In this document: in pieces, positions 308-4,497 of the stretch | How the letters are laid out: each line of letters begins with the position of its first letter | How positions within the stretch are numbered: the stretch's first letter is position 1 | Translations under genes and position numbers: made by a program | Assembly: GCA_040217195.1 (NCBI GenBank) | Contig: JAVJNR010000008.1 | Span: 192,001 to 256,000, forward strand | Length of the DNA stretch: 64,000 bases | Reading direction: 5' to 3' | Source: Leptospiraceae bacterium | GTDB lineage: Bacteria > Spirochaetota > Leptospiria > Leptospirales > Leptonemataceae | The notes under the pieces: model-generated | Told to the model about the DNA's origin: nothing | Seen by the model: the letters and a program-made list of their open reading frames with translations, nothing else | Databases searched by the model: none

Positions 308-1570
308 TCAGATAAAGATATTGATGATCCAGGAAATAGCCTGTCCTACGATGCTGTCGCTTAACCAGCGCTTCAGATCCACAGGGTTTCTATTCAGGGA
401 GTCGTAATACCAGGCTGCATATTCGCTGGCCTGAGGGATGTTTACGCTGTACTGACGGTTAATGTCTTTGATCAACTCATTGGCCAGTACTGTATGTCCG
501 TAGCGGTTCGGGTGAACTCCATCCAGACCAAATACACCGGGTTTTCCGGGCAGAGGCCAGTTGGCTCCCGCATTTCCAGGGCTCCAGCCACTGGAGTGAC
601 GAATTGGTCGGCCGTTTTCTTTGATGTCGGAAAACAATGCTTCTGCATCAGTCAGAGCATAGTTTCGAGCTGCAGCCTGTCGACGTAGTTCATTGTTCAG
701 CATGGTCAGGAAGTTGGTAATTGTTGCAACTTCGCCTGCATCCAGAACATGATTTGGGCTGGAAACGCCACTTCGATAGAAGGCTTTCAGGCCCGAGTAG
801 TTGGCACGACCTTGAGGATCGTTATACCTTTCCAGGTAGTAAATTGATGTTACATTAGGAACGGTAAAGATACTTCCACCTTTGATAGTTCCAATACGAT
901 CCAGACGACGCATTACTTCTGCAACGTCTCTTTTGAATCGCGCTTCATCCAGACAATCCAGAGTGGTGCTCAGAGCTGTACAGAGTACATGGTTTGCGCC
1001 CACAGAAGCGAAAACGAAGCTTGGCTTCACTTTTTCCATTACCTGGATTTGTGTGCCTGCATCGCGCAGTCCGAATCTATGGAATTTGTCTGGCTTCTGG
1101 CAGTCCTGTACCTCAACCCAGCGATAAGTGTACCAGTACCATTTTTTCCAGTACCAGTCTTTTACCCATTTCTTGGCATAAATATCTTCGCAATTGCCGC
1201 TGGTTCGCAGCGCCGAAGTATATTCGCCACCGGTGATACCGGCATGGGTAGGCAGGCTGTAGGTCTTTTCATTGCCACCAAGAACAGACGAGGCCAGGCA
1301 GAATACTCCGCAATCGCCTTTCAATACGTCTTCAAGATTAGCATAAGGACCTTTCAGTTCATTATAGTATACATTGGATCCGGCTTGTTTGGATACAACG
1401 ACAGGATAGGCCCAGTTCTGTGTCTTTTTTTCAACCGTTACGCCGTAAAAACCCTGAGACAGGGAATCACCCATAACTGCCGGTCGCTTGAACAACTCGG
1501 ACACAGACTGAGCGGAAATTGAAGTGGCACATAGCATTAATGCTGCCACAATCCATCGACCCAGTTTCAT
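308..1570 (-). CDS. Secreted SGNH/GDSL-family hydrolase (lipase/esterase-like)
   Basis: Signal peptide, block I GDSLSQG, block III GAN, block V DGVHPN; GGAGGAG RBS before ATG at 1570. Confidence 0.85.
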
Positions 1571-1586
1571 ATACACTCCTCCGTAA

Positions 1587-2055
1587 AGTTACGTTGCGGC
1601 GGCCACATCCTGTGGCCGTCCTCACGTGGTTCTATTTTGCGGGCCTTCGGCCCTTGCGAACTTCCTGTTCGCTGCAAAACGCATTGCGTTTTGACTTCGT
1701 TCCCAGCCCATTGGCTGGCAAAACTTCTATCTAGTTACGCTCGGTCGGATACCTCGTGTATCCTCCTCCCGTCGCTCTGCCCTGGCCCTCTGGGCCAGCA
1801 AAACATCCTGTTTTGGCAGAATGCTTCGCAATCTGCAGTTACGCTCGGTCGGATACCTCGTGTATCCTACTCCCGTCGCTCTGCCCTGGCCCTCTGGGCC
1901 AGCAAAACATCCTGTTTTGGCAGAATGCTTCGCAATCTGCAGTTACGTTGCGGCGGTCACTTTCGGTGGCCGTCCTCACGTGTTTTGGCAGAATGCTTCG
2001 CAATCTGCAGTTACGTTGCGGCGGTCACTTTCGGTGGCCGTCCTCACGTGGTTCT
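1587..2055. repeat. Composite array of ~105 bp multi-hairpin (REP/BIME-like) units
   Basis: 104-bp tandem duplication 1733-1836/1837-1940 (1 mismatch), 68-bp duplication 1913-1980/1981-2048, diverged homolog 1587-1693; many short perfect hairpins. Confidence 0.9.
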
Positions 2056-2211: not shown

Positions 2212-2274
2212 TGACACGGTGTCATGTTAAGGGTATAGGTTAGCGTGGCGCAAGAAAAAAATTACATCGTGTCA
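2212..2274. promoter_or_regulatory. Paired candidate operators TGACACGGTGTCA (2212-2224) and TTACATCGTGTCA (2262-2274) around a possible minus-strand sigma70 promoter (TTGCGC-N18-TAACAT)
   Basis: Perfect 6-1-6 palindrome plus a 2-mismatch copy 50 bp away. Confidence 0.45.
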
Positions 2275-2292: not shown

Positions 2293-4497
2293 TTAATCTT
2301 CTGCCAGGTACTTAAGCAATGAGCGGAAATCGCGCACACCATTTAGTCTGAAATGTGCATGGGTGTACCCGGCTCCAATCTTAATGGACCATCCTCTAGG
2401 AGGTAAGGCCTGAAACAGATGTTCATCGGTGGCATCGTCTCCAGCAGCCATCATGAAATCGTAGCTGCGGCCACTGGTTTCCAGGTGAGGGATGATGTTA
2501 CCTTTGTGAATGCCCTGAACTCTAACTTCAATAACGGCTTTTCCATCCAGCACATCGAGAGGAGCACCGGAGAGCATATTCTTCAAGTGCATTACCAGTT
2601 CTCTGGCCTGCCATTTACCAAAGGTCGGATCGCTCAGTCTGTAGTGCCAGGCCAGGGCCGCTTCTTTCTTTTCCGTGAAGCTGCCCGGTGTTTTTAAATT
2701 GAACTGCTCGAATATATCCTCTACCGTTCCCAGCCATTCCAGGTCATGGCTTTCTGGAAGCTGCTTCTGCCATTGTTCGTTTACCATCCGAATCCAGAGC
2801 CCATGTTCTGCAGATATGATTACCGGGAATCGGCCCATCCAGTCTTCAATCTCCTGGCGTTTTCGACCAGTAACTATGGCCACGTCTGTGTTGGGCAGGG
2901 CTGTAATTCGCTCCATAATTTCCCGTAATTCCTGATCCGGTGCTGCGGCCAGAGGAAGGTTCTGAAGCTCAGCCAGGGTTCCATCGTAGTCCAGTAGCAG
3001 AAGTCGCTTGCTGGCTTCTTGCATTTCCTGTTTCAGTTCATTACGCTTCTGAACATTGAGAGGCATCACCGGACCGTGCCGATCCGCATATTCCTGAGTG
3101 CTCCGAGTCAAATCTTCCAGAAAGGATTTAGACCAGTAGTGAACATTGTTCCTTTTGACTCTCTCATACATGGCAGTCATACGTCGGGTGCATTCATCCT
3201 GACCCAGCTCCAGAGCCGTTTCCAGAGCATCGGAAATCTGGTCCCGATTCCAGGGATTAATGATAATTGCTTCTCCGAGTTCGGATGCGGCTCCTGCAAG
3301 CTCACTTAGAATGAGGACACCATGATCTTTCTTAACTGCAACATATTCCTTGGCCACCAGGTTCATGCCATCGAAGTATGGAGTTACCAGAGCTACATCC
3401 GCTTCCCGGTAAAACGCGGCCAGCCTGCGAAATGGCAATGAGCGATACATGAACTGGATGGGAGAATCGGGAAGGGCTTCATGGGCTTCAATGATATCCA
3501 TGACTATCACCTCCACCTTATCCTTCAGATGACGATAGTCAGGGATCTTGGTTCTGGAAGGAACCGCTACCTGAACCAAAACCACTTCTGCAGCCTTTTC
3601 TGGATTTCTTTCCAGGAACTTCTTGTAAGCACTCAGTCTTTCGGGAATACCTTTGGTGTAATCCAGCCGGTCCACGCTCAGGATCATTTTCCGACCCTTT
3701 TTGATCTGCCTTACAATTCGTAGATCCTCTTCGAAATCAGGCTCCTCCATGGCAGCGGCAATTCGACTGGGATCAACGGAAATAGGGTAGGCTCCGATCT
3801 GTACACTATGATCTTCCATATCGATTCGGTTGATTTCAGAATCGATGCCCAGAAGATGGAGTAGACTGCTGCGAAAGTGTCGCAACCCACTGTGAGTTTG
3901 AAAGCCAATGAGGTTGGACCCAAGTAAGCCTCTAAGCAATTCCTCTCTATAGGGTAAGGCTCGAAACATTTCTGACGATGGGAATGGAGTGTGCAAAAAG
4001 AAGCCGATTCTAGCTTCCGGTATCTTTTCTCTTACCATGGAAGGCACCAGCATCAACTGATAATCGTGAATCCATACAATGTCTTCGGTATTTCCTTCCT
4101 GAAGTTCAGCAACAATACGATCTGCAAAGACCCGGTTTACCTCTCTATAAACGCGAAAGTCTTTTTCATCATAATCAATATGAGTGGGCAAATAGTGAAG
4201 CACAGGCCAGAGCACTCGATTGGAAAATCCAAAGTAGAATCGATTTAACTGACGCCTGGTCAGAAAAACGGCGGATGCATTGTATTCTTTTTTGAGTTCA
4301 GCGGAAATGCTTTCTGGCTGAATCATAGATAGATCTACTTCGCCAGGCCAGCCAATCCACATCAACTCATAAGAATCATTCAATGCGCTCAATGCGCTGG
4401 CCAGCCCTCCGGGGCTGGGTTGAAAATGGAAAGATCTTTCTGTTACTTGAATTGCGACCGGGAGACGATTGGCTACTACGAGTATTCTTTGCTTCAT
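2293..4497 (-). CDS. otsAB: Bifunctional trehalose-6-phosphate synthase/phosphatase (OtsA-OtsB fusion)
   Basis: GT20 motifs (WIHDYQL, VDRLDYTKG, DGMNLVAKEY) plus HAD domain LDYDGTL and GDDATDE. Confidence 0.95.
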   Translation of the reverse strand: MKQRILVVANRLPVAIQVTERSFHFQPSPGGLASALSALNDSYELMWIGWPGEVDLSMIQPESISAELKKEYNASAVFLTRRQLNRFYFGFSNRVLWPVLHYLPTHIDYDEKDFRVYREVNRVFADRIVAELQEGNTEDIVWIHDYQLMLVPSMVREKIPEARIGFFLHTPFPSSEMFRALPYREELLRGLLGSNLIGFQTHSGLRHFRSSLLHLLGIDSEINRIDMEDHSVQIGAYPISVDPSRIAAAMEEPDFEEDLRIVRQIKKGRKMILSVDRLDYTKGIPERLSAYKKFLERNPEKAAEVVLVQVAVPSRTKIPDYRHLKDKVEVIVMDIIEAHEALPDSPIQFMYRSLPFRRLAAFYREADVALVTPYFDGMNLVAKEYVAVKKDHGVLILSELAGAASELGEAIIINPWNRDQISDALETALELGQDECTRRMTAMYERVKRNNVHYWSKSFLEDLTRSTQEYADRHGPVMPLNVQKRNELKQEMQEASKRLLLLDYDGTLAELQNLPLAAAPDQELREIMERITALPNTDVAIVTGRKRQEIEDWMGRFPVIISAEHGLWIRMVNEQWQKQLPESHDLEWLGTVEDIFEQFNLKTPGSFTEKKEAALAWHYRLSDPTFGKWQARELVMHLKNMLSGAPLDVLDGKAVIEVRVQGIHKGNIIPHLETSGRSYDFMMAAGDDATDEHLFQALPPRGWSIKIGAGYTHAHFRLNGVRDFRSLLKYLAED

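Follow-up and report, generated by a model that had tools for sequence, protein, structure and literature searches.

A dispersed, genus-restricted hairpin repeat as the source of the GGA loops in front of a spirochaetal SGNH-like hydrolase gene

The GGA-loop hairpins which precede an SGNH/GDSL-like hydrolase gene in the 64-kb window (the whole stretch of DNA analysed here) belong to a repeat unit of about 104 nt that is restricted to its genus, is dispersed over the genome, was recently inserted at one site, swaps its modules and maintains near-perfect pairing of its stems. On balance, and with somewhat better than even confidence, the hairpins are best read as modules of a likely non-autonomous mobile element, for which any CsrA binding of the GGA loops would be secondary. 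An earlier note on this DNA had instead proposed a repeat-built, CsrA-controlled leader or a CsrA-sponge RNA.

The array and its place in front of the SGNH gene

The downstream neighbour of the array (308..1570, minus strand; ORF and Pfam) codes for a secreted SGNH/GDSL-like hydrolase of 420 aa, an assignment which is marginal given the Pfam match to PF00657 Lipase_GDSL (E 4.7e-5, 24.1 bits versus a cut-off of 23.6). The gene starts with the ATG at 1570, and a search across the order identified an orthologue in 26 of 31 genomes. Its Shine-Dalgarno sequence (SD) ACGGAGGAG (1584-1576, minus strand), placed as in the earlier note, contains an A(N)GGA motif (ACGGA), and locus comparison found it unchanged at five sister loci. 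Upstream of the array a fused trehalose-6-phosphate synthase/phosphatase gene is located (2293..4497, minus strand; ORF and Pfam). The host genome (G000) comprises 4.6 Mb on 10 contigs and is present in marine metagenome runs, whereby runs with a share below 0.2 were left out of this habitat reading. In a Leptospira-family genome, a MITE-like element with the inverted ends TAGAGTTGTTGAAAAA was observed upstream of the same SGNH gene (L021).

Comparison of loci revealed the unit, when read on the GGA strand, to follow the order H1-H2-H3-A/T-rich linker-H4-anchor, the anchor being CGAGCGTA(C/A)CT. H1 mostly possesses a GNA triloop, H3 is of the type C[GNA]G, and the loops of H2 and H4 follow C[A(G/C)GAN]G, the H4 stem being irregular. 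Within the window all units are oriented along the minus strand. The SD-proximal unit consists of H1 (1675..1693, AAT loop), H2 (1656..1672, loop AGGAA), H3 (1641..1653, C[GAA]G triloop) and the terminal hairpin H4 (1586..1628, loop AGGAU), which ends in the anchor CGTAACT; the end of the array is separated from the SD by 2 nt and the H4 GGA is positioned 28 nt upstream of the SD GGA. Two near-identical 104-bp units follow (1733..1940), each with the series H1-H2-H3-linker-H4, where H2 carries the loop AGGAU (1799-1815 and 1903-1919) and H4 the loop ACGAG (1734-1771 and 1838-1875). Two identical, truncated units of 68 bp (1913..2050) are built from H1 and an H4 with a CGAAA loop. GGA is hence found in H2 and H4 of the proximal unit and in H2 of the 104-bp units, the equivalent H4 loops of the latter being of the CGA type, and the 68-bp units are devoid of a GGA loop; the earlier note does not mention these CGA-type loops. 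H1 and H3 (1641-1693) resemble parts of the RF02902 consensus (Aggregatibacter sRNA 22; 18.4 bits versus a gathering score of 39.8), which possibly reflects shared hairpin modules or chance. In several units (L099, L115, L117, L097) a module CAACTG(G/A)AAGGCG(G/A)CAGTTG was observed nested in the H4 loop, often together with a further hairpin.

The four GGA hairpins reported by the earlier note were recovered on the minus strand at 1601-1617 (extending to 1600-1618), 1656-1672, 1799-1815 and 1903-1919, and so was its view of a repeat-built array whose count changes by duplication, as tandem duplications of 104 bp and 68 bp as well as module exchange between strains and sisters were identified. 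The array reaches further upstream than the 1919 given there, namely to about 2075, and the two CAAAAC hairpins derive from one 104-bp tandem duplication, which leaves three independent sites. All four ACAGGAWGT motifs of the window (1.03 expected) fall within the array. In the 645-nt leader, four C[A(N)GGAN]G hairpins whose stems count 5 or more pairs occur on the mRNA strand and none on the opposite strand, the mean in shuffled leaders being 0.0015 with three or more in 0 of 2000 shuffles. Linear A(N)GGA motifs are confined to the mRNA strand (14 versus 0), but their number is not clearly above chance (shuffle mean 8.8; at least 14 in 143 of 2000 shuffles). When the whole leader was folded, the two proximal GGA loops were fully open (unpaired probability 1.0) and the two distal ones mostly buried (0.22 and 0.01); in a shorter fold all four sites form hairpins.

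This strong structure (z -7.8) and the restriction of GGA to one strand (14 versus 0) would suit the array giving rise to a dedicated small RNA of the CsrB/RsmZ type, and one predicted, uncharacterised CsrA-like ncRNA, reported for L. biflexa in PMC4863578, may be added in its favour; the earlier statement that no characterised CsrB-type sRNA is known from spirochaetes has to be supplemented by that prediction. The opposite strand folds equally well, however (z -7.9), as is expected of perfect palindromes. A consensus scan returned 0 terminator-like sites in 1500-2400, hence none between the array and the SD, into which the array itself reaches; furthermore, just four GGA hairpins are present, the sister sequences are not conserved, no Csr/Rsm family was among the three weak Rfam matches at E <=5, and CsrA of this organism is FliW-linked. 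Such a small RNA is therefore regarded as very improbable, and the earlier suggestion of a dedicated CsrA sponge was not supported, given the negative terminator scan, the position of csrA within flgL-fliW-csrA and the dispersal of the unit over 12 loci.

An array was found at all five sister (same-genus) SGNH loci that were recovered, always ending at the same SD, with length and module order differing in all six genomes; one of the sister loci ends at its contig end. Nine loci of other genera were compared and found to have no SGNH array, five further loci being outside this comparison as the search motif missed them. Upstream of the array an operator-like palindrome TGACA-N3-TGTCA (2212..2224), whose function would be that of an operator judging by its form, is kept in all four sister loci which reach that far, and in four genera without an array a similar palindrome (at most 2 mismatches) precedes the GDS motif by 196-279 nt. 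In five genomes the distance between operator and GDS motif amounts to 344-912 nt. Since the palindrome lies upstream in both array-bearing and array-less loci, the array most likely lies between promoter and SD and probably within the SGNH mRNA leader, as judged from sequence. The promoter scan itself gave 1 site versus 0.8 expected. Perfect copies of TGACA-N3-TGTCA number five in the genome, all of them intergenic, those besides 2212-2224 being located at C1:855561, C2:405856, C5:913 and C10:201086 of G000. Two copies stand 34-42 nt before membrane-protein genes, which look like members of the sterol-desaturase family, and it is possible that the palindrome marks a lipid-related regulon including the SGNH gene.

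RNA-library contigs (one sample, strand not given) cover gene and leader, and contig X19 (1481-1601) bridges the start codon; its 172-nt skip is a weak feature, as 35 letters fit both sides at a depth of 2.2. The upstream trehalose gene has no RNA-library cover, to be read with the fact that contigs drop rare reads and that the runs were picked with this stretch. Contigs from DNA runs of close strains document change of the array: in X1 and X3 the SD-proximal H4 is replaced by another GGA hairpin, X4 has a 252-nt deletion, and a contig of run X5 shows a compensatory pair change at 1604/1614 within H4.

Dispersal and insertion of the unit

A BLAST search of G000 with the array as query returned three other loci only, which is explained by the divergence of the stems and made motif and HMM searches necessary. 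The genome scan for hairpins and their orientation, which had been proposed earlier, was carried out with an HMM of 51 unit copies and identified 31 unit matches at 12 loci of G000, whose adjoining genes are unrelated. Eight of these loci lie before a start codon of the same strand (five in tandem and three in divergent spacers), two are antisense and two are located at 3' ends, with gene positions coming from our own gene caller. Three of the four non-leader copies are found no further than 23 nt from an opposite-strand stop, and within tandem spacers five sense copies oppose two antisense copies. The earlier note had named genome-wide REP-like copies in random orientation as the case that would speak against it, and only half of this was encountered: copies are genome-wide, yet their orientation leans towards sense. 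In other genus members the anchor was counted 30 times (G004) and nine times each (G005, G002). The H4 module yielded 59 matches in six of seven genus genomes, as opposed to four single matches in 35 other genomes of the family; the unit is genus-restricted.

Empty sites gave evidence of insertion. At an operon junction of G004, a three-unit array of about 390 nt is bordered by CTA at both ends, and as the junction measures at most 16 nt in the other genomes (six of seven), the G004 array is an insertion. Two further G004 arrays have no counterpart at the G000 site; for one of them the spacing is 551 versus 58 nt, and the other cuts short an Rpn-family ORF (L091:1249-1600 versus L193:1237-2214). 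For the Rpn-family gene of G004 it was observed that the unit sits in the 3' part and that the long ORF ends just before an internal SD and start of a small C-terminal ORF. CTA duplication was identified at one of three empty sites. At a further locus (L070), units alternate with copies of the 3' end of a gene. New copies, it is assumed, would land tight against a coding boundary, either before SD and ATG or next to an opposite-strand TAG stop, and the arrays would subsequently expand and shuffle by slippage and by recombination among loci.

What counts against the mobile-element reading is that no mobiliser was identified (a Y1 transposase/RAYT, PF01797, was not found in six of six genus genomes searched, these being 77-94% complete), that no clear terminal inverted repeats were seen by eye, and that orientation is biased. 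The bias towards sense leaders, together with the fact that several unit loci are occupied across the genus, suggests retention by selection. No such repeat surrounds the small GIY-YIG gene found in G000, and membership in the GIY-YIG/Ssn group (PMC11893778) was rejected. Another observation concerns a second class of GGA-loop repeats, which in G000 stands beside tRNA genes and a vapBC-like pair (C7:268-1750, C2:499730-500315, C5:81489-82400, C10:532732-533310) with mixed orientation to the tRNA genes.

Conservation of loops and stems, and the question of CsrA

The genome encodes CsrA with the usual family profile (best solved relative 5dmb_D), so that the earlier statement on CsrA in spirochaetes applies to this organism too; the gene lies downstream of fliW and of a flagellar hook-type gene in the order flgL-fliW-csrA, which according to PMC8668096 is the Leptospira arrangement. 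The same work reported Leptospira CsrA to bind the GGA loop of flaB leaders in vitro, presumed FliW to be the antagonist and quoted the CsrA consensus RUACARGGAUGU, which the GGA loops of the array match. Flagellin-like genes of G000 possess an SD within a GGA hairpin or a similar structure.

The 59 H4 matches, when read by eye, comprise 39 GGA loops, 13 CGA loops, 6 others and 1 chance match. Anchor-selected pentaloops gave a comparable distribution (40 GGA, 14 CGA and 6 others); in the anchor-selected census 34 rows were inspected, of which 6 were dropped as chance and 3 as duplicates and 25 kept. Both the A-GGA-N and the A-N-GGA-N form are present, the hexaloop ANGGAN being almost never CGA, and with GGA making up two thirds of the loops this is as expected for CsrA sites. 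A domesticated CsrA cassette was considered, in which leader copies, irrespective of their origin, would be retained because CsrA binds them and represses or stabilises the mRNA, insertions would wire unrelated genes into the CsrA/FliW circuit, and the dispersed copies would jointly act as a sponge tuned by copy number. The sense-leader bias in G000, the position of the anchor some 2-20 nt from SD or ATG at several loci, the occurrence of pentaloop and hexaloop CsrA forms with proximal loops open in the mRNA fold, and the strandless, single-sample RNA cover bridging the start codon all fit. If CsrA binds, repression would likeliest proceed via the AGGAU loop at 1610 and the SD GGA 28 nt downstream.

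Against this stands that the SD-proximal loop is GGA in four of six SGNH orthologues and CGA in two (G002, G005), and that the orthologous G002 array (L066) shows CGA in all loops where G000 has GGA, leaving it without any GGA loop. The GGA dependence of CsrA binding is documented in PMC8668096 and PMC13443453, CGA itself lying outside those tests, and a change from GGA to CGA is expected to weaken binding. Antisense and 3' copies, and an SGNH gene which does without an array in other genera, are likewise difficult to reconcile with the cassette, which is rated as a tentative alternative, unlikely though not negligible. The CsrA-type leader of the earlier note survives insofar as the array lies in a probable mRNA leader and its loops fit the consensus; as a gene-specific device it does not, for the unit occurs at 12 loci, some of them antisense or at 3' ends, it has newly inserted in a sister, 13 of 58 terminal loops are CGA and L066 is CGA-only. 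In the reading favoured here, a non-autonomous repeat most likely occupies the SGNH leader, with the proximal loop and the SD as plausible, secondary sites of CsrA binding.

The stems point in a further direction. For 51 distinct H4 hairpins, 306 stem pairs were scored as 272 Watson-Crick, 12 G-T, 7 A-C and 15 other pairs, and in a second, pairing-selected set of 554 pairs 518 were Watson-Crick, 8 G-T and 6 A-C; the H4 stems thus lack a clear excess of G-U pairs of the RNA type. Of 145 triloops read on the strand of the element, 98 are GNA and 17 ANA; d(GNA) mini-hairpins are unusually stable in DNA. Folding asymmetry as DNA and as RNA (32 versus 34 of 45) gave no separation. Pairing that is kept under near-free stem change, loops that tolerate CGA and the GNA triloops together point to upkeep of the fold at the DNA level, and it may be envisaged that the palindromes are kept perfect as DNA, with GNA triloops and purine-rich internal loops suiting folded single-stranded DNA. 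A DNA-only reading is opposed by the sense-leader bias, by the presence of both CsrA loop forms and by the strict GGA of gammaproteobacterial repeats (see below).

A host function independent of CsrA has also to be weighed, in which the stacked hairpins of a REP-like element would protect or process mRNA or serve as protein sites in folded DNA, their likeness to CsrA sites being coincidental. The constant loop part C-A-(G/C)-G-A-N-G would suit it, as would CGA being a propagated allele and not random decay (13 CGA versus 6 other), the tendency of copies to hug stop codons like REPs and a CGA-rich array in a Leptospira-family genome, described below. As no partner protein was identified, and as both the strict GGA of the gammaproteobacterial repeats and the near absence of CGA from the hexaloop count against it, this explanation is considered improbable.

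Related repeats and implications

Outside the genus, 30 of 151 gammaproteobacterial genomes versus 0 of 151 alphaproteobacterial ones contain the hairpin GCACA(N)GGATGTGC at least three times, with a maximum of 115 copies, csrA being present in 131 and 29 of these genomes, respectively. The tallies include three genomes flagged as unpublished (G162, G240 and G307), of which G240 alone, with 3 copies, belongs to the 30; none of the statements made here depends solely on them. The distribution would suit the domesticated CsrA cassette, yet 29 csrA-positive alphaproteobacteria lack the hairpin, and within the Gammaproteobacteria the link to csrA is not significant, as 18 of 131 csrA-positive and 0 of 20 csrA-negative genomes carry at least 5 copies (Fisher p 0.13, the genomes being related). 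In five high-copy gammaproteobacteria the loop of the related hairpin is strictly GGA (300 versus 4), and in G148 the GGA hairpin belongs to a tandem intergenic repeat. In view of up to 115 copies per genome, such strict-GGA hairpin repeats may be linked to CsrA; their likeness to the unit is taken as resemblance, no homology being claimed.

A scan of GTDB matched 36 loci; inspection by eye assigned about 14 gammaproteobacterial ones (mostly Rhodanobacter) to a repeat with GGA hairpins and a single one to the G004 locus. Terriglobales matches were discarded as coding sequence (start of an EF-G-like ORF), several further matches as chance by eye, and an 11-12-base pattern was given up, being swamped by coding matches, with repeats at 0 of 30 loci from three csrA-less genomes. 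Rhodanobacter and other gammaproteobacteria were seen to possess a repeat, likewise dispersed, which comprises three A(N)GGA hairpins and has a 21-base stretch in common with the H2 module (L024, L026, L028, L032-L034, L038, L039, L041-L043, L046, L047, L052, L057); Rfam at gathering score gave no match for L024 and L052. Closer to the host, the Leptospira-family genome G113 (C1:1336000-1546000; L059-L064, L192) was observed to hold 19 copies of a like hairpin on one strand, 17 of them CGA and 18 with an attC-like TAAC core behind them, the genes in between being variable. This array adjoins a gene for a tyrosine recombinase, whose TIGR02249 score of 178 bits does not reach the cut-off of 265, and looks, by sequence, like a large chromosomal cassette array; PMC3607928 called Treponema the sole spirochaete clade with integrons. 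An integron attC array was dismissed for the unit itself, as the GTTAC of G000, which would have to stand for the RYYYAAC/GTTRRRY core, reads AGGTAC in sisters and no cassette ORFs lie between units.

BIMEs are mosaic repeats of the REP type, and the unit agrees with REP/BIME in forming palindromic clusters which are dispersed and lineage-specific and for which relatives show empty sites. With GTAG- and CGTC-tagged REPs, as described in PMC3733652, the unit has in common lineage-specific intergenic palindromes, mosaic clusters, proximity to stop codons and presence or absence between close relatives, and CGTC REPs also occur without a dedicated transposase. It differs from REPs in that its stems vary freely and its loops are fixed, REP conservation being the reverse, and in its four-hairpin build, the lack of a recognised GTAG/CGTC tag, the lack of a RAYT in six genomes and 12 loci versus hundreds.

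TwoAYGGAY (RF01731) is similar, according to PMC2864571, PMC4333381 and bioRxiv 10.64898/2026.09.22.753630, in being a structured element that occurs in many intergenic copies, in having two loops of the GGA type in each unit, a purine-rich internal loop, large variation in copy number, a proposed mobile-like spread and a proposed binding of Csr/Rsm. Its model gave 0 matches in G000 at E <=1, and the best match in the sisters reached 27.8 bits versus 43. The loops of the unit, unlike AYGGAY, are for the most part AGGAN pentaloops, with CGA as an allele; each is borne by a hairpin of its own, a GNA hairpin and the linker lying in between, instead of both sharing one basal stem, and the units form head-to-tail arrays in a spirochaete host instead of divergent doublets. 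The CsrA-repressed flagellin leaders (Leptospira flaB3/flaB4, PMC8668096; B. subtilis hag, PMC13443453) resemble the SGNH leader by a GGA loop upstream of a GGA-containing SD and by the same flgL-fliW-csrA operon of their FliW-type hosts, but are described as short unique sequences with one or two sites, whereas the sites here belong to a repeat scattered over the genome, differ 1-12 fold among the sisters and are often CGA. As to CsrB/CsrC/RsmX-Y-Z (PMC4333381), repeated CAGGA(U/A/C/G)G in hairpin loops of one strand is shared, yet the array is no stand-alone gene: it has no terminator, runs into the SD, offers few sites, is dispersed and finds no Rfam match. By the tests made, the unit works like REP/BIME mosaics and TwoAYGGAY and is a member of neither. 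The literature searched, which included few subscription journals and no supplements such as Additional File 2 of PMC2864571, contained no description of it.

For TwoAYGGAY and similar repeats with GGA loops, a role as CsrA sponges has been put forward since 2014 (PMC4333381), the same proposal as for the cassette discussed above, and a 2026 preprint (bioRxiv 10.64898/2026.09.22.753630) terms the link between mobility and regulation unresolved. Both sides may be joined in a bolder and distinctly speculative proposal: a selfish repeat whose loops are selected for CsrA would land directly before ribosome-binding sites, each insertion being able to bring an unrelated gene under CsrA control, with the copies forming a dispersed sponge tuned by copy number and the strict-GGA repeats of Gammaproteobacteria following the same strategy. 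The genus supplies natural controls, namely sites with and without the unit, orthologous loci at which one hairpin bears either GGA or CGA, and copies that lie sense as well as antisense, by which the question is directly testable. If CsrA is indifferent to the unit, hairpins that match the CsrA consensus perfectly can stem from a repeat and lead target prediction astray; if the proposal holds true, CsrA regulons would be wired by mobile elements, and a sponge would exist in a FliW-type bacterium thought to be without CsrB.
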